This document shows positions 6,169-12,762 of a stretch of DNA of 64,000 bases, piece after piece (the first letter of the stretch is position 1; the number at the start of each line of letters is the position of its first letter). The stretch spans positions 416,001-480,000 of the forward strand of contig CAVXGK010000001.1 in the NCBI GenBank assembly GCA_963761305.1, read 5' to 3'. Source of the stretch: an uncultured Gemmatimonadaceae bacterium (GTDB lineage Bacteria; Gemmatimonadota; Gemmatimonadetes; Gemmatimonadales; Gemmatimonadaceae). The translations under genes were made by a program, and so were the position numbers. Below the pieces are notes generated by a model. The model worked only from the letters and a program-made list of their open reading frames with translations, had not been told where the DNA came from and made no database searches.

Positions 6169-6474
6169 GGCGGCGGGAGCCGACATGGAATCGGCGATCG
6201 GGCTCGATGCCGCACCGGGCGCGCGGTTTCCGCGGGATCGCCTGGCTCGGTTCCGACGAAAGATTAGAGCGATCTAATGTTTGGGCCCATATGAATCCGC
6301 CCCCGCCCCACCCTGGCTCCCTCCCCCGTCCCTCGCCAAGATTTGCTCCCCTTCGCGGCGACGTGCTGACCGTCGGCTGACGCTCGCGCCGAGATTGGGG
6401 GGCGCGGGCACGGAATGCGGCCCGCGGCCAGACAGACGGAACGACTTTCCATGCCTACCGGGGGGAGGGCGCGG

Positions 6475-9400
6475 ATGATCATCCTGAAGACGCTTGGCGC
6501 CGTTTCGATCGAGATCGAGGACGTCGTGTCGGCCTACCGCCGCCAACTCGCCAAGCCGACCCAGTCCTGTACGACGCCTCGCGCATGGCGGCGCTTCGCG
6601 CTCTTGCTCTATCTCGCTGCGGAGCATGGACGCTCGGCGTCGCGAGATCAGCTGACGACCCTGATCTTTCCCGACAAGGCCCCGCCCGCGGATGCGCACT
6701 CGCTTCGCGAGCTGATCTACCAACTGCGACGCGCCGGCGTGCCGATCGTGAGCACTGGGCGCCAATACATAATCGAGTCGCGGTTCGTGCGCGCCGACTA
6801 CGACGAAGCGCTTTCCGCGCCCACGCTCGACGACGAAACGCTGAACGCCATGCTGGGTGGATTCCTTCCCACCGTCACGGCGCCGTGGAGCGAGGCGTAC
6901 ACGGAGTGGCTCGACGCGTGGCGTGCCGCCCGGATCGGCGAGCTCACTCGCCGCACGGTCGTGCAGATCGAGCAGGCTACCCATGCCGGTAGCTGGGAGG
7001 CCGTCGAGCGAGCCGCACGGGCGTGCCTCGGGGTCGATCCGTGGAACGAGACGGCGACGTTCTCGTTGGCCGAGGGTCTCGCCGTGGGTGGATCGAAGGC
7101 CGCCGCATTCCAGCTTCTCGACCGGTACATCGCCGAGGTGGCGCCGCAGTCCGCGGACCTCGCCGGGCGCGCCACGCGCCGCCGGCGCCGCATGAGCGAC
7201 GGGCCGTCGACTACGGTTCTTCGAGGCACAGGCTCCGGCGCCATCGACGACAACGGGGCGGCTTCGCCGCGTCTTATAGGTCGGGCCGGTGAACTGGGTA
7301 CGCTCATCGCCACATTCGATCGCGCCGAAGCCGGCGAGTCCCAATGCTTCGTCGTCGCCGGCGAGGCGGGCATCGGCAAGACTCGGCTCGTCGCCGACTT
7401 TTCGGCGGCCGCGCAGCTGCGTCAGGCGCACGTCGAACGCGTGACCATCCAGCCGCACGATGGCGACCGCCCGATGGGCGCCTTCGTCGACCTCGTTCCC
7501 GGGCTGCTCGAGGCCAACGGCGCGCTCGGCTGCTCCGAGGCGTCGATGGCGGCGCTCAGGAATCTCATCGGCCAGCGAGGCGCGGACGACGCGTCGCCCC
7601 AGACCGCCGGATCCGACGAGCACGAGCAGCGATGGTCGGCCGTGTCACGCGCTGTGGTGGACCTCTGCGACGCGATCGCGTCCGAGCAAACGCTGGTGCT
7701 GGTGATCGAAGACGCCCACTGGCTGGACGCGCTGTCGGCGAACACGATCGGACGCATCGTCGGCACCAAGCGCAAGGCGCGCATTCTGGTCGTCGCCACG
7801 ACGCGCGATCCGCGGCCGCTGGTGCGCGAGATCCGATTGACCGAGCGATGCCAGACCATCTCGCTGGGACAGTTGACGCCCGTCGCGGCGGCCGAGTTGC
7901 TCGACATCGTGCTTCCCATACAGGACCGCCGCGTGCGCGAGGACTGGATCGGCGAATCCCTTCAGTCGCTCAAAGACCGCATCGCCTCGATCTCGGCGGG
8001 CAATCCGCTGTTCTTGATCTCGCTCGCCGCCCACTCGCGCGCCCATCGCGGGCCGTTCGAGGTGCCGGGCACGATCGTCGAGACCTTCGCCCAGCGCATC
8101 GACGCCCTCTCGCACCGAGCGATGACCCTTCTCGCGACGTGCGCCCAGTTGGGGAAGCACAGCACGATCAAGCGTCTCGTGCTTGCCATGGAGATGAAGA
8201 AGCACGCGCTGGTGGAGGCGCTGCTGGAGCTCACCGACAGCGGCCTGGTCCTCCGCGACGCGCAGGCCGCGAACCTCACGCATCCGCTGGTGTCGGAAGC
8301 GCTTCGCACGCGCCTCCACGAACTCGCCCGCCGCGCGGTTGCCGACGCGGTCGCGGGCACGCTGGAGAAGGAAGCCGAAGGCGGCCAGTCGCCGGCTCTG
8401 TGGTGGGACGTAGCCGAGAGCTGGCGTGTGGCGGACAATCCGGAGAAGGCGATCCATGCGCTCAAGCGGTGCGCACAGCATGCCCTCGAGATTGGTCGGC
8501 CGGGGGAGGCGGCGAGAATTCTCTACGAGGCGGCGGCGCTTCCACAGCCGGTAGAATATTTGCTCGAGATGAGCGAAATACTGATTCGCGCCGCCGACGA
8601 AGCCGCCGAATATCCGTTGGTGTTGCGAGGATTCCAATTGCGCCGCCAAGCTCACCCGGCTCCACGACACGACGAAATCGAGGAGCTCGAGTGGAGGGCT
8701 CTACTCGCCCTCGACCATTCGGAGCGACCGTTCGCCCAGAGGCTCCACCAGTGCTTGTTGGCTCAAGAAGCAAGCCCGCGGCATCGGACTGCTGCAGCGA
8801 TAATGCTTCTCAAATGCGCTGACATGTTCGGACGACGGGACCTCGGTCTGTTCGCTACCAAACACGTGTCCGCAAATGACCTCGCTATGGTTGATCCATT
8901 GGTCGCTCTTGAGTTTGAGCTCCTCAAGGCATCCGTGCGAGGGCGCCGCGCCGCCGCTGCAGCCGTTGGACGTAAGATCCTAGAGAAGTCCGCGAGATCG
9001 CTCGAGCCGGCCCCACTTCACCTTCAGCGCAATGCCGCGACGGCGATCCGGCTAGCGGGCGACGCGACGGGCGCTATCGAAGCCTTCGAGGAGCTCTATC
9101 GGAAAGCGGATCGGGGGCGTTCGCCGAAAGCACAGCTCTACTCGTGCCTGCAGCTCTCCTCGACCTATCGAGATCTAGGCGTGGATACGGACGCGGACGT
9201 GTGGCTGAGCCGTGCCATGAGCATCGCCGCGGACTCCGACCATTTGACAACTGACTTTGAATTGGTAGCCGCACGAATCGAGACGGCCATCGGCCACGGT
9301 CATTTTGAGAGGGCAGAGATCGCGATGCGGGAGGGAGACGCCGCGGCGACGTTCTCTGGCGCCATATGCCGGCGCTTCCGCCGCGCCGCTGAGCTGGCGA

Positions 9401-9744
9401 TTCAAGTGGCGGCGGGCCACCGTGGTCAGTCCACGCGTGAACTCGTTCGCGCGATCGCGGACGACGACTTGAGAAGCATGACGGGCATCCGCGAATTTGA
9501 AATCGCGGTCCTGGTTGACGCGCTTGGGCGTCTCGGTCTCGCGGACGACGCTAAGGCAACACTGGCGGCTTACCTTGCAGCGCGAGATGAACTGCGGCCT
9601 CTATCCGCACTCCTTACACGATCCGCGCATGTAGCGGGCTGCGAAGCCCTCACCGAACGGTTCAACCGTTCTTCAGCAGCCAGGTGGCGACAGAGCAAGA
9701 AGAGAAAGCGCGCCCCGGAAGAGGCAATCGAGTTGCAGGCCTAG
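6475..9744 (+). CDS. Large BTAD/SARP-like + STAND AAA ATPase + helical-repeat transcriptional regulator
   Basis: wHTH-like start (LKTLG...LLLYLA...SRDQLTTLIFP), BTAD (ACLGVDPWNE), Walker A GEAGIGKT, Walker B LVIEDAHW, GNPLF, HPLV. Confidence 0.85.
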   Translation: MIILKTLGAVSIEIEDVVSAYRRQLAKPTQSCTTPRAWRRFALLLYLAAEHGRSASRDQLTTLIFPDKAPPADAHSLRELIYQLRRAGVPIVSTGRQYIIESRFVRADYDEALSAPTLDDETLNAMLGGFLPTVTAPWSEAYTEWLDAWRAARIGELTRRTVVQIEQATHAGSWEAVERAARACLGVDPWNETATFSLAEGLAVGGSKAAAFQLLDRYIAEVAPQSADLAGRATRRRRRMSDGPSTTVLRGTGSGAIDDNGAASPRLIGRAGELGTLIATFDRAEAGESQCFVVAGEAGIGKTRLVADFSAAAQLRQAHVERVTIQPHDGDRPMGAFVDLVPGLLEANGALGCSEASMAALRNLIGQRGADDASPQTAGSDEHEQRWSAVSRAVVDLCDAIASEQTLVLVIEDAHWLDALSANTIGRIVGTKRKARILVVATTRDPRPLVREIRLTERCQTISLGQLTPVAAAELLDIVLPIQDRRVREDWIGESLQSLKDRIASISAGNPLFLISLAAHSRAHRGPFEVPGTIVETFAQRIDALSHRAMTLLATCAQLGKHSTIKRLVLAMEMKKHALVEALLELTDSGLVLRDAQAANLTHPLVSEALRTRLHELARRAVADAVAGTLEKEAEGGQSPALWWDVAESWRVADNPEKAIHALKRCAQHALEIGRPGEAARILYEAAALPQPVEYLLEMSEILIRAADEAAEYPLVLRGFQLRRQAHPAPRHDEIEELEWRALLALDHSERPFAQRLHQCLLAQEASPRHRTAAAIMLLKCADMFGRRDLGLFATKHVSANDLAMVDPLVALEFELLKASVRGRRAAAAAVGRKILEKSARSLEPAPLHLQRNAATAIRLAGDATGAIEAFEELYRKADRGRSPKAQLYSCLQLSSTYRDLGVDTDADVWLSRAMSIAADSDHLTTDFELVAARIETAIGHGHFERAEIAMREGDAAATFSGAICRRFRRAAELAIQVAAGHRGQSTRELVRAIADDDLRSMTGIREFEIAVLVDALGRLGLADDAKATLAAYLAARDELRPLSALLTRSAHVAGCEALTERFNRSSAARWRQSKKRKRAPEEAIELQA

Positions 9745-9781
9745 GAATGAGCGCGGGACTCCTCGAATTGCGGTTAGGGCG

Positions 9782-11152
9782 CTACGCGCCCAACCGCAAT
9801 CTGTTCCGCCGCGGGGCGGTTGCACGAGCCGAGCGCGTCGTTAGGACGGCAAGCGACGCAATCGAAGCATCGCTAGCAACCGGCGCGAAAAGGGTGGACC
9901 ATAGCGGGCTCGCAAGCAGGCGATCAGTTATCTCGGGATCGAATTGCGTTGCCCGACAGCGGACAATTTCATTTTTGACCTGAGTCTCGCTAAGCGGCCC
10001 TCGGTATGGCCGCTCTGTGGTCATCGCATCGATAGTGTCAGCGAAGCGTATGATTCTGGCTGCGAGAGGAATGTTGTCCTCGGCCAGCCCCGTCGGGTAA
10101 CCGGTGCCATCCCAATTCTCGTGGTGATGGCGCACGGCGGGGACCAAGGCGCGCAGTTTGGTCATCGTCGCGATAAGGTTCGCGCCGTCGTCAGGATGGT
10201 CGCGAATAATCGCCCATTCTTCGGGCGTCAACTTATCCTGCTTTGAGAGAACTGACGCATACTTCTCATAGATTTTTCCAACGTCATGAAGCAATGCCGC
10301 ACGCCCAATCTCTTCAACTTGTCGGTCAGATAGCCCAATCGCACGGCCGATTGTCGTTGAAAACTGCTGCACCCGACGCGAGTGTCCAGATGTATAGGGA
10401 TCGCGTGCTTCAAGCGACTTGACCATCAGTTCAAGCAACTCCTCGTTGGTTCGCTCAAGGTCCAGATTCGCCTGCTGCACCTGGCGCAGCCCGAGGATCG
10501 GCACCCAGCACGTCGCTGCCGCGATAGCGCCGAATACGGCGTAGACCCATCCGAAGACAAAGACGAGCGGCACAACAAGGAAGTCGAGTCCGATCGTGGC
10601 TCGATGGTTCTCTTGAAGGACGGCCTTGACGCGCCGACCGTTGCTCGTCGCGATGGCGACCGCAACGATGAGGTTGTTTGCAACAAGGGCCAGGGCGAAC
10701 GCGGTGAGCGCTGGCAATCCGGCGACCCGAGTCACGTGCGTCAGGCTGTGTGAATCGGTGATGCTACCTAGTGCAATTCCACCGAGTGCCAGGTAGACCG
10801 CGACGGCAACCAATTCCATTATCGCGTGCGACGAGATGTTCAGCAGCGCTTTAATCGGTGCTCGTCGCTGCCACAGCTCGACAACGGCCTTCACCAGCAC
10901 AACGCAAGCAACGCTTGGCCAAGCGGGTACTACGACAGCAGCCGCAAAATACGGAATGAACCCGATGGACCCGCTTGCAGACGCGGGTAGCAGAAAGGTG
11001 AGCAGTTCGGCTGTAACGGCCAGCGCGCATAGAGCGAGAGCGTCGGAAACCATCGCCTCCGGAACCGATGGCGCATGCAAGTATAGGGCGGCCGTCCCGA
11101 GGACTGCCGCTGCTACAACGCAGCTCACGAACGCTAGGGTTGCTCGACGCAT
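9782..11152 (-). CDS. Membrane-anchored HD-GYP cyclic-dinucleotide phosphodiesterase
   Basis: About 7 hydrophobic N-terminal helices; DPYTSGHS, LLHDVGK, HHHENWDGTGYP, FDP motifs; GAAGGGGGT RBS before ATG at 11152. Confidence 0.9.
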   Translation of the reverse strand: MRRATLAFVSCVVAAAVLGTAALYLHAPSVPEAMVSDALALCALAVTAELLTFLLPASASGSIGFIPYFAAAVVVPAWPSVACVVLVKAVVELWQRRAPIKALLNISSHAIMELVAVAVYLALGGIALGSITDSHSLTHVTRVAGLPALTAFALALVANNLIVAVAIATSNGRRVKAVLQENHRATIGLDFLVVPLVFVFGWVYAVFGAIAAATCWVPILGLRQVQQANLDLERTNEELLELMVKSLEARDPYTSGHSRRVQQFSTTIGRAIGLSDRQVEEIGRAALLHDVGKIYEKYASVLSKQDKLTPEEWAIIRDHPDDGANLIATMTKLRALVPAVRHHHENWDGTGYPTGLAEDNIPLAARIIRFADTIDAMTTERPYRGPLSETQVKNEIVRCRATQFDPEITDRLLASPLWSTLFAPVASDASIASLAVLTTRSARATAPRRNRLRLGA

Positions 11153-11179
11153 AGGAAAACTTCGACCCCCTTCTCTCAC

Positions 11180-11230
11180 CTAAACCCAGGTCACATTCCC
11201 TGCAAACAAGCAAAGCAGGAATGCCAGCAT
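11180..11230 (-). CDS. 16-aa hydrophobic peptide MLAFLLCLFAGNVTWV (absent from ORF track)
   Basis: AAGGGGGTG RBS 6 nt before ATG; TAG stop; sits immediately before the HD-GYP RBS. Confidence 0.7.
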   Translation of the reverse strand: MLAFLLCLFAGNVTWV

Positions 11231-11256
11231 ACGCGTCACCCCCTTGGTACGTCAGT

Positions 11257-11347
11257 CACGGGTTGTTTCCCGTGCTCCAAAGTGAGCTTCGCTCAAATAC
11301 CCTGGACGGAATTGTCCTCCGCTCGTCTTCGCTTTCAGCGAGGGAGG
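11257..11347 (-). promoter_or_regulatory. Structured 5' leader with three hairpins
   Basis: Plus-strand arms CACGGG/CCCGTG (11257-74), TCCA..TGAGC/GCTCA..TGGA (11276-306), CCTCC..TCGCT/AGCGA..GGAGG (11316-47). Confidence 0.5.
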
Positions 11348-11598
11348 GGGTCGTTTTCTAGTTTTTTAAATAGTGAATTATGAGGATGGTGGACGTTCGC
11401 CGCGCTGTGTAACTCGCTCCGCGAACCCGCGCCCAGGACACGCTCTCGCGCCCCGCGCCGGGCTCGATCAGTCTGTCACTCTTCCTCAAGTATCGGCGAA
11501 GCGGTATACCACGCTGTCGACCATGATACGATTCGTTACAGAAACCGCGAGTATTCTACAATTTTGTAAACGACCCGCCGAACCTGCTCGCCCTCAAT

Positions 11599-11670
11599 CC
11601 GGTCCACCGGTCCACCGGTCCACCGGTCCACCGGTCCACCGGTCCACCGGTCCACCGGTCCACCGGTCTA
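11599..11670. repeat. Tandem 8-mer (CCGGTCCA) x9
   Basis: Direct inspection; last unit CCGGTCTA contains the stop codon of the 11668-12504 gene. Confidence 0.95.
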
Positions 11671-12504
11671 CCGATCCAGCCACCGGTTCGTCGCGTCCAG
11701 GATCGCCAGCACGCTCGCCGTCTCGGGACTCTCGCGCACTTCCGCGCTCCCCGTCATCAGCGCCGTCTCGCGGCCGTGCTTCGTCGACACACCGACGAAC
11801 ACGAAATTGCGGTCGAATGCCTCGAGGAAACGGCAGCCCTCCAACCCCAGCACGCGCTCGTCGCCCTCGGCAAGCTTGATCGCCATGAGCGAGGCGCGCG
11901 CGGCGAGCTCGATCCGAAGTCGTTCGTTCTCAATGCCTTCGGCCTCGCCCACGTACGACTCATCGCCTTTTCGCAGGGTCACGCGACACATCACGCCGCG
12001 TGTCCGGGATCTCCTGACTTCAACATCCTCGAAATAGATCCGCCGCTTGTTCAACACAGCGATCGCTTCCACGCTCGCCGGCGTAAACTGTCGCGGTGCA
12101 CTGGACAAAATGGCCGATGCCGGCGCCGAGGGCTTCAGCGGCAATGCCGGCGCGCTCCCGCTGCCGTTGCCATTGCCATTGGCGATGCCGTTGCCGTTCC
12201 CGTTGCGAGAACCCTTCTGGCTCTCGTCCGACGTCGCCACCGAAATCTTCTTGTGCGACACGTGCATGCCGAGATGCGCGATCAACGCGCTCTCCACGTT
12301 TCGAACCGTCTGCTTCGGCGTGACTTCGGTCGTCGTCAGGATGTGAATTTCGTCCACCGCTCCGTTGGGGCTGGCGACGATGCGCGCGGATATCACCCCG
12401 GGCAGCGTGGCCAAAAGCTCCTCGGCGCGCTGAATGGGTAGCACACTACCGGCGATCAGTGACGACTCGGCCGTTGGCGCAGAATTGGTGTTGGGCAGCG
12501 GCAA
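11668..12504 (-). CDS. Conserved hypothetical protein; C-terminus resembles the LeuA allosteric (regulatory) domain
   Basis: N-domain LPGVISARIV...VDEIHIL...PKQTVRNVESAL; low-complexity linker; C-terminal GSAEVRESPETASVLAILDATNR. Confidence 0.75.
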   Translation of the reverse strand: MPLPNTNSAPTAESSLIAGSVLPIQRAEELLATLPGVISARIVASPNGAVDEIHILTTTEVTPKQTVRNVESALIAHLGMHVSHKKISVATSDESQKGSRNGNGNGIANGNGNGSGSAPALPLKPSAPASAILSSAPRQFTPASVEAIAVLNKRRIYFEDVEVRRSRTRGVMCRVTLRKGDESYVGEAEGIENERLRIELAARASLMAIKLAEGDERVLGLEGCRFLEAFDRNFVFVGVSTKHGRETALMTGSAEVRESPETASVLAILDATNRWLDR

Positions 12505-12619
12505 CGCAGTACTCCGGCGTCGAAAAGGCGGGGACTTCCTCGGTAAAGACGACGCGTTCTACGCCGCGTCACGTCCCCCCGGGTAAGTATTGCCCGCATG
12601 GGACCTTAAAGGGGGCGTG

Positions 12620-12729
12620 AACATACCCCTCCTTGACCGATTTTTCAAGCACAACGTGCGCGTCTTAGCACGAATGTGAACAACTCGTTCGCGTACGTGA
12701 ATAACTCGTCGCGAACGTGCATAAGTTCC
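12620..12729 (-). promoter_or_regulatory. Sigma70-type promoter with three upstream direct repeats
   Basis: TTGAAA-17-TATGTT (12648-12620); repeats GTGAACAACTCGT 12676, GTGAATAACTCGT 12697, GTGCATAAGTTCC 12717. Confidence 0.55.
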
Positions 12730-12762
12730 GCACGCACCGCTGAATTTGGATGCTATTGCCCG

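Follow-up and report, generated by a model that had tools for sequence, protein, structure and literature searches.

A module of three parts was found in Gemmatimonadota, Armatimonadota, Bacillota and Actinomycetota: a two-domain protein (hyp), a folded RNA that encloses the gene of a hydrophobic micropeptide, and a membrane HD-GYP protein with a MASE9-type sensor domain. The micropeptide is probably the missing partner of the enzyme's orphan sensor. The window is the whole stretch of DNA analysed (64,000 nucleotides from an uncultured Gemmatimonadaceae bacterium). To our knowledge, the signals of most membrane c-di-GMP enzymes are not known; the module offers a named candidate ligand for MASE9 and a predicted pocket in which two asparagines are invariant. 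The module was not found described in the literature searched, of which the supplements were partly covered and a motif listed there could be missed.

Table 1. Features of the module and of the adjacent regulator gene in the window.
Feature	Position	Strand	Basis
hyp gene (two-domain protein, 278 aa), candidate RNA binder	11668..12504	-	ORF
Structured RNA, whole element, peptide ORF inside	about 11155..11360	-	fold z, covariation in relatives
P1 5′ arm (GACCCCC...)	11338..11352	-	predicted fold
Three AGCG(G/A)A repeats (11327-34, 11317-24, 11287-94)	11287..11334	-	
Hairpin P3 (11254-76) and peptide ribosome-binding site (11233-45)	11233..11276	-	
Micropeptide MLAFLLCLFAGNVTWV, 16 codons then stop	11180..11230	-	ORF, conserved
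P1 3′ arm, overlaps the ribosome-binding site of the HD-GYP gene	11164..11179	-	
Membrane HD-GYP phosphodiesterase (predicted), MASE9-like N-terminal domain, ECF S-component fold	9782..11152	-	HD_5 115.6 bits
Convergent STAND-type ATPase regulator, lineage-restricted accessory	6415..9744	+	AAA_16 67 bits; synteny counts

The coordinates given to the three minus-strand genes in a preliminary description of this DNA were borne out, as was the interval of 37 bp between the stop of the HD-GYP gene and the stop (9744) of the plus-strand ATPase gene. The peptide has the ribosome-binding site of its own that had been claimed for it (MLAFLLCLFAGNVTWV is preceded by AAGGGGGTGA), and the HD and GYP motifs are indeed intact: GHS, LHDVGK, HHENWDGTGYPTGL and DTIDAM are found in the gene, and the HD, HHExxDGxGYP and DxxDAM motifs are all present in the protein. 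The folded RNA that encloses the peptide ORF had been overlooked.

Judged by its conservation, the 16-codon ORF is a genuine gene. A conserved small ORF had been expected upstream of HD-GYP homologues; a short hydrophobic ORF led by a Shine-Dalgarno sequence, with upstream repeats, was found in the same place in 30/31, 39/47 and 66/70 loci (three groups of loci, each locus with at least 450 nt downstream). A TGG within the last 18 nt of the ORF is in frame 66 times out of 77. The proposed G-x(2-3)-W end is typical (W in the last five residues of 62 of the 68 distinct Gemmatimonadota peptides) but not universal (30/65 elsewhere). Several actinomycetotal loci keep the RNA motif and have an absent or odd hydrophobic peptide. 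Readthrough from the peptide into HD-GYP was considered and rejected: the shared reading frame is not conserved.

The element is a candidate new class of structured RNA. A long-range helix, P1, clamps both ends, and three to six AGCG(G/A)A repeats and hairpins lie 5′ of the ribosome-binding site. The window element has an RNA fold z of -4.5 (0/200 shuffles equally good), and covariation among relatives is strong. A search for P1 by whole-region duplexfold was too permissive and an ungapped helix score was used instead; this score chose another pairing in a few loci including that of the window, for which P1 was therefore taken from the predicted fold. The predicted fold engages the ribosome-binding site of the peptide in a helix with an arm that lies upstream; in a single-helix test, pairing that sequesters this site exceeded the 95th percentile of shuffles in only 5/67 and 18/66 loci. 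Model R1 contains no base pairs. No Rfam match over the element was obtained in 20 + 17 loci at gathering and E-value thresholds, and the search with the window gave chance matches only. An 8-nt tandem repeat 3′ of hyp was rejected as part of the module, since it occurs genome-wide. Multi-site RNA control is exemplified by TRAP and CsrA. The likeness is several short single-stranded motif copies near a ribosome-binding site; unlike these systems, the motif here is AGCG(G/A)A and the binding protein is a candidate only.

The hyp protein represents an unannotated family: no Pfam or NCBIfam model matched it, and an ESM Atlas search returned hypothetical clusters only. The LeuA-regulatory character ascribed to this 'EIHI' protein is upheld by its predicted structure (AF2 model, pLDDT 79), in which the C-terminal half (residues 154-277) has a LeuA/CimA regulatory fold (Foldseek E 7e-5 against LeuA; Z 9.7, rmsd 3.4, 110 aligned residues against the CimA regulatory domain). 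In LeuA and CimA, this domain binds an amino acid at the dimer interface. The N-terminal domain (residues 20-95) is alpha/beta; its matches to the CDF C-terminal domain and to BolA-like structures (Z 7-8.7) have no diagnostic value. Two observations count against hyp as the RNA binder: neither domain is basic (pI 6.0 and 6.9), and paralogues of hyp without the RNA element occur at loci L055, L056, L064 and L066.

The sensor of the window scores 16.6-19.4 bits against MASE9 (PF20972), under the cut-off of 24.3; 64 of 83 aligned homologues match at E<=0.01, and 4/11 HD-GYP homologues of other phyla score above the cut-off. According to its AF2 model (pLDDT 93.5), the sensor has an ECF S-component fold, with a six-helix core and a lid hairpin. 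The top 14 VIA matches are all ECF S-components (Z 9.7-13.9; next unrelated match 7.5); Foldseek also places S-components first, but at E>=0.014. Judged by its N-terminus, hairpin, H4-H5 loop and H6-H7 loop, all rich in K/R, the sensor would have its lid side, together with the invariant N105 and N159, facing the cytoplasm; the pocket side is thus predicted to be cytoplasmic. The sensor shares its fold with NikM/CbiM, RibU, BioY, FolT and ThiT (Z up to 13.9); unlike these S-components, it is fused to an enzyme and predicted to be inverted in the membrane. No ECF module was present among recurrent neighbours (neighbour clustering). The available text of the MASE9 paper (10.1101/2021.11.05.467447) proposes in-membrane binding of a ligand that is not known. 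Thermotoga maritima TM1467 and Streptomyces venezuelae HdgA and HdgB share the membrane domain family, the 8-segment topology and the HD-GYP output; the parts of the MASE9-HD-GYP literature that were accessible say nothing of a peptide, an RNA, a partner protein or an S-component fold, and the domain of the window lies under the MASE9 cut-off.

The suggestion that similar genes flank membrane HD-GYP genes in other phyla was supported for the trio of hyp, RNA-peptide unit and MASE9-type HD-GYP, in tandem, divergent or separated layouts (separated: L333). That the linkage persists through such rearrangements speaks for the three parts forming one module. In a protein-blind scan of metagenomes with a DNA pattern, 14 of 80 matches adjoin hyp and/or the sensor, the peptide being called in 13; the same scan of viral contigs gave 0/17 matches with hyp, sensor or HD-GYP. 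Cultured carriers (Desulfosporosinus, Geosporobacter, Caloranaerobacter, Symbiobacterium) make the module testable. A second HD-GYP gene lies in tandem at many loci of Bacillota and Actinomycetota.

Among 33 close Gemmatimonadota pairs, peptide distance follows that of the sensor (rho 0.82) but not that of hyp (0.27). The partial correlation of peptide and sensor given hyp is 0.21 in Gemmatimonadota and 0.50 in other phyla (0/300 permutations); that of peptide and HD domain given hyp in Gemmatimonadota is also 0.21. With disjoint pairs, tail and sensor distances give rho 0.72 (22 pairs), and in other phyla 0.25, not significant (9 pairs). The signal at the H6-H7 loop was chosen post hoc among 14 segments. 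Within the genus, identity is 42-53% for the sensor (frameshifted L031 aside), 68-97% for hyp and 74-82% for the HD domain. The genes of peptide and sensor are neighbours, so that the correlation is also what their joint transfer or a relaxation common to both would give.

The preferred reading, to which about an even chance is given, is that the RNA gates synthesis of the micropeptide and that the peptide, by binding to the sensor on its intracellular side, modulates the hydrolysis of c-di-GMP. In the comparison among loci, P1 closes the RNA at both ends, and single-stranded AGCG(G/A)A sites occur in several copies next to the peptide ribosome-binding site. A protein on these sites, most likely hyp with its LeuA-type domain sensing a metabolite, would set the amount of peptide. 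The hydrophobic peptide would insert into the inner membrane and dock, by its short aromatic tail, in the pocket of the MASE9 S-component fold on the cytoplasmic side. Hydrolysis of c-di-GMP is an established activity of HD-GYP domains; by analogy, the catalytic domain would have it too, and peptide binding would switch it, so that peptide supply becomes c-di-GMP level. In Gemmatimonadota, P1 would in addition mask the HD-GYP ribosome-binding site, which may couple enzyme synthesis to translation of the peptide. A more elaborate relay is advanced tentatively and is, as a whole, rather unlikely: a LeuA-like metabolite sensor binds the AGCG(G/A)A repeats on a dedicated micro-mRNA and thereby licenses a strain-specific peptide, the cognate ligand of a c-di-GMP phosphodiesterase whose fused receptor is an S-component in inverted orientation. 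If true, c-di-GMP would receive a peptide input of the lock-and-key kind in four or more phyla, and MASE9 would be de-orphaned; the module would be near categorically new if hyp-RNA and peptide-sensor binding both hold. MgrB, which acts on PhoQ, and SafA are small membrane proteins that modulate sensors. They resemble the module in the link of a short hydrophobic ORF to a membrane signalling protein; unlike them, the micropeptide has a c-di-GMP enzyme as candidate target, its gene lies within a structured RNA and its sequence co-diverges with the sensor.

The peptide could instead be a product without target of a cis-acting leader ORF, a ribosome that translates it or stalls (at the Trp codon, or at the C-terminal prolines of Armatimonadota peptides) opening P1 and thus freeing the HD-GYP ribosome-binding site or blocking termination. 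This reading is unlikely, without being negligible. Where P1 is strong in Gemmatimonadota (40 loci), its 3′ arm ends at a median of 21 nt past the peptide stop, and in 24 of them no more than 14 nt separate it from the HD-GYP start. In other phyla, 11/26 loci have a T-rich run after P1. The leader diverges far less than the peptide does (median distances 0.08 and 0.62); mgtQ, an intercistronic short ORF near a helix that occludes ribosome binding at the next gene, is a precedent in the available part of its description (PMC8092293). However, P1 is that near the downstream start in only 1/26 loci of other phyla, the hydrophobic core, small-residue hinge and aromatic tail of the peptide are kept across phyla, and peptide divergence follows the sensor. 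In addition, one RNA-peptide unit in G115 lies behind hyp with no HD-GYP downstream. Compared with mgtQ as described there, the RNA is multi-helical with repeated motifs, and the physical character of the peptide is conserved.

A secreted pheromone for quorum or kin sensing, exported as a precursor, cut down to the aromatic tail and detected by MASE9 in strain-specific pairs, is distinctly improbable. Peptides of Bacillota, Actinomycetota and Armatimonadota do have a basic N-terminus, a hydrophobic core and an L-A/S-G-G-A hinge; their resemblance to signal peptides, by which the tail would be outside, speaks against the preferred reading. Against a pheromone, the predicted pocket side is cytoplasmic, and most Gemmatimonadota peptides lack the basic N-terminus. 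The similarity to Phr/NprX signal regions is weak and far under cut-off. Five close relatives have a nearly identical 20-residue peptide N-terminus followed by four different tails, and the cassette has a low GC3, both in keeping with a pheromone; the variable tails also speak for the preferred reading. So is a dedicated membrane protein, DUF5317, encoded 3′ of HD-GYP in 39-42 of 94 loci (Bacillota, Actinomycetota, Armatimonadota); however, it was not found in the 41 Gemmatimonadales genomes searched, and neighbour clustering revealed no recurrent exporter or peptidase. DUF5317 had been considered, by eye, as a signal-peptidase-II-like protease (two aspartates), which was not supported (hhalign probability 2.6%); it has no PDB relative, and an Atlas search was blank. 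ComS, in the available part of the source (PMC5295010), resembles the micropeptide as a short precursor whose C-terminal tail bears Trp; it is processed into a short C-terminal pheromone. Unlike ComS/XIP-ComR as described there, the core module has no Rgg/ComR-type receptor or Opp, and its candidate receptor is a membrane phosphodiesterase. Neighbour clustering showed no TPR-type cytoplasmic receptor of the ComRS, Rgg-SHP or Phr kind adjoining the core locus, and peptide-family matches were all far under cut-off.

The regulator had been labelled BTAD-STAND-helical-repeat and assigned a feedback loop. The STAND part of the label holds, the ATPase motifs being present (AAA_16 match; Walker A GEAGIGKT at 316); the Trans_reg_C match is weak and no BTAD or TPR model of Pfam matched at E<=0.1. 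The loop is not general: a convergent STAND gene was found in 22/23, 22/25 and 4/10 Gemmatimonadota loci and in 0/63 loci of the other three phyla, where the flank extended only at least 2 kb past the HD start and the profile was built from Gemmatimonadota. From this distribution, the regulator is mainly a Gemmatimonadales add-on, not a core feedback loop. That it closes a loop, as receptor of the peptide or by recognising the AGCG repeats at the DNA level, is very improbable. The convergent gene in 44/48 Gemmatimonadales loci, the fast-diverging C-terminal third of the protein, the GC3 of the last third (0.67), close to that of the HD-GYP gene (0.65; neighbours 0.81-0.85), and a different, MalT-like STAND downstream in 8 actinobacterial loci agree with it; against it, repeats and peptide are kept in the other phyla, and the repeats are located in hairpin loops whose stems covary.

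Folding of the element as single-stranded DNA, as a priming signal or REP-like sequence, is hardly credible. Similar GAGCG(A/G)AGCG words do occur in repeated extragenic elements and small viral contigs, and the element is presumably comparable to the hexamers of plasmid single-strand origins and to GNA mini-hairpins. However, the fold is better as RNA (z -4.5) than as DNA (z -2.9), G-U substitutions are many, and the variable base of the repeat is not free, being a purine in 166 of 171 tandem sites. The element is single copy in its own genome and always on the sense strand of the peptide.

By sequence comparison, the peptide ORF is a real micro-gene, and it lies within a structured RNA. Together they form a module with the gene of an unknown 278-aa protein (hyp) and that of a membrane HD-GYP protein with a MASE9-type domain (sensor). 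All coordinates of the preliminary description were reproduced on re-reading. Hyp matches no model of Pfam or NCBIfam; a close homologue carries the label Gemmatimonadaceae in its source record. The membrane protein, called HD-GYP, does carry the complete HD-GYP motif set; its match to MASE9 is below threshold. The convergent gene, proposed to encode a BTAD-STAND-repeat regulator, encodes a STAND-type ATPase; BTAD and TPR had no match in Pfam/NCBIfam.

Coordinates of the module and of neighbouring features (window positions, or positions in the homologous locus, L, or genome, G, named)
Feature	Position	Strand	Remark
STAND gene	6415-9744	+	convergent
HD-GYP (sensor) gene	9782-11152	-	
Shared frame of HD-GYP gene and peptide ORF	11152-11182		only TAG between
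RNA element	~11155-11360	-	
Peptide ORF	11180-11230	-	16 codons
8-nt unit	11605-11668		8 tandem copies, immediately 3' of hyp stop
hyp	11668-12504	-	
Excisionase-type HTH plus receiver gene	L043:3559-4155		between hyp and RNA
BldD-like gene	L270:3-659		immediately 3' of hyp
raiA RNA; c-di-GMP-I riboswitch (L165)	L165:1190-1727; L180:869-1178		upstream of module
Stand-alone paralogue of hyp C-terminal (LeuA-like) domain	G000:C2:1638550-1638927		

The DNA 3' of hyp homologues was analysed in relatives and, for Armatimonadota, Bacillota and Actinomycetota, in 80 named genomes (the best 80 of 588 confirmed). An automatic filter retained hydrophobic ORFs led by an SD sequence with at least two AGCG(G/A)A repeats upstream, in loci with at least 450 nt downstream. 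The conserved small ORF that had been predicted was found in 30/31, 39/47 and 66/70 loci of three groups. Among the misses are five hyp paralogues that lack the element, one ORF that runs on and some loci whose peptide is seen by eye; a few automatic picks have a doubtful start. HD-GYP comes next after hyp/peptide, as proposed, in 24/25, 37/42 and 67/67 loci with at least 1900 nt. Peptides range from 14 to 47 aa, and a TGG close to their end is in frame in 66/77. Those of Gemmatimonadota are hydrophobic with a W-bearing tail; those of other phyla have an MK/MR start, a hydrophobic core, an AGGA-like hinge and a short aromatic tail. Proline runs following an aromatic residue end the peptides of Armatimonadota and some others (L111-L122, L150, L157), a possible ribosome-stalling end.

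In 121 genomes of the phylum, a search with a sequence-only model of 41 leaders gave 74 places (E<=1e-4), training loci included. When the unpublished genome G089 is left out, 69/73 places are directly 3' of a full-length hyp; the remaining four sit at the ends of contigs, immediately 5' of HD-GYP and STAND genes. A protein-blind pattern scan of metagenomes gave more than 120 matches in all; 14 of the 80 listed loci have hyp and/or sensor beside (peptide called in 13), and the remaining 66 have neither. The tallies 93/121, 73/121 and 48/151 include unpublished genomes. The trio had been suspected in other phyla too, and it does recur in Armatimonadota, Bacillota and Actinomycetota loci. Among the latter, many have hyp in divergent orientation to the unit of RNA, peptide and sensor, and BldD-like or DUF5317 genes follow hyp; in genome G115 the units are apart. 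DUF5317 is next in 39-42 of 94 loci of these three phyla, whereas a search of 41 Gemmatimonadales genomes did not find it.

Within the genus, the 110 nt 5' of the peptide start are far better conserved than the peptide. An arm about 120 nt upstream pairs with one just past the peptide stop (helix P1), with a median score of 32.5 vs 21 for shuffles and also for cross-group pairs; the score exceeds the shuffle 95th percentile in 93/138 loci. RNAalifold (24 loci, one family) predicts P1, a hairpin whose loop reads UAGCGR and two helices in which the peptide ribosome-binding region is paired. In these four helices 90% of cells are paired (slid controls, ~52%); both sides change in 16/29 pairs, a level reached by 0/500 shuffles, figures that are inflated by related sequences. 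Helix P2 is invariant throughout. Leaders hold 4.1 AGCG on average, vs 0.3 on the opposite strand and 0.7 in shuffles, and the next base is a purine in 500/568 cases. Rfam has no match to the element. Masking of the RBS may not be general, as a single-helix test for it was passed by only 5/67 and 18/66 loci. Alignment A12 (L140 and related loci) offers a candidate two-state switch: there the UAGCGG hairpin has a 3' arm that can pair instead with the RBS-to-start-codon segment.

Peptide and sensor appear to change together. Within-genus identity is 42-53% for the sensor (frameshifted L031 set aside) vs 68-97% for hyp, 74-82% for the HD domain and 87-97% for an NtrC-like neighbour. Both the HD-GYP gene and the final third of the STAND gene show a fall in GC3, to 0.65-0.68. 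Over 33 close pairs, the distance between peptides tracks that between sensors (rho 0.82 vs 0.27 for hyp distance); tail and sensor give 0.72 (22 disjoint pairs) vs 0.25 in other phyla (9 disjoint pairs). In the H6-H7 loop, predicted to be cytoplasmic, 0-2 of 18 sites differ in two identical-peptide pairs and 8/18 in five different-tail pairs; its rank among 14 segments (second and first in two groups) is post hoc. Linkage alone could account for much of this co-variation.

The modelled sensor domain (AF2, pLDDT 93.5) was compared with 48,161 chains; the top 14 are ECF S-components (Z 9.7-13.9), the best being NikM-like 4m5c (191 residues, rmsd 3.6), and Foldseek also places S-components first, weakly. 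N105 and N159 are invariant. H7-H8 appears as a single helix in the simplified secondary structure; the topology of eight segments is therefore taken from charge bias and the MASE9 paper. Models agree with the label LeuA-regulatory-like: the hyp C-domain is predicted to have the LeuA/CimA regulatory fold. Its N-domain, of a common alpha/beta fold, has only middling matches.

An even chance is given to an RNA-gated micropeptide: the RNA element would gate its synthesis, hyp being the likely RNA-binding gate, and the peptide would bind the sensor from the cytoplasmic side and, once bound, tune c-di-GMP hydrolysis by HD-GYP. Conservation, covariation in the RNA, linkage and the predicted folds are what the comparisons show; every binding event, the ligand of hyp and the direction in which regulation works are inferred. 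A leader ORF acting only in cis, of the mgtQ kind (PMC8092293), is somewhat unlikely. A role in cis does not preclude one in trans, and in Gemmatimonadota both probably occur.

Across 83 homologues of the sensor, K/R are concentrated in four places, namely the N-terminus, the hairpin, and the loops H4-H5 and H6-H7; the lid side is therefore predicted to be cytoplasmic. ECF S-components have their lid side outside. A secreted pheromone, as from ComS (PMC5295010), is unlikely. A feedback loop through the STAND regulator is highly improbable and, as a general feature, was not borne out: the convergent gene is present in 22/23, 22/25 and 4/10 Gemmatimonadota loci vs 0/63 elsewhere. A single-stranded DNA structure is hardly credible; for the window copy, the folding z is -4.5 when treated as RNA vs -2.9 when treated as DNA.

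MASE9-HD-GYP proteins are already described, with ligand unknown, in the available text of 10.1101/2021.11.05.467447. According to that of PMC6205966, HdgA/HdgB mutants have no developmental phenotype, and its authors suspect an absent activating signal. No description of the module was found in the literature searched (including the main text of PMC11109978 and one supplement of PMC8632094), most subscription papers being outside reach.

The BldD-like gene is also found in L352, L355, L356 and L360, all Actinomycetota loci of divergent layout; BldD itself is an effector of c-di-GMP. The raiA RNA is found in Bacillota/Actinomycetota, where a ribosome hibernation gene is upstream of the module in 36/94 loci; L165 also has a c-di-GMP-I riboswitch upstream. 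The HTH-receiver insertion is shared by relatives of L043 (some genera). Contigs often break right at the RNA element (L330, L331, L332, L334), perhaps because the cassette downstream varies between strains. Arrays of the 8-nt unit (at least 3 copies) number 27 in the same genome and are missing from homologous loci of relatives. The frame shared by HD-GYP gene and peptide ORF is likewise found in L008, not in most relatives. Nearly all relatives have the stand-alone hyp paralogue, and it lacks the RNA element. The word GAGCG(G/A)AGCG also occurs in a repeated extragenic element unrelated to the module (14/80 metagenome hits; e.g. L208, L216, L217, L237, L243, L255).
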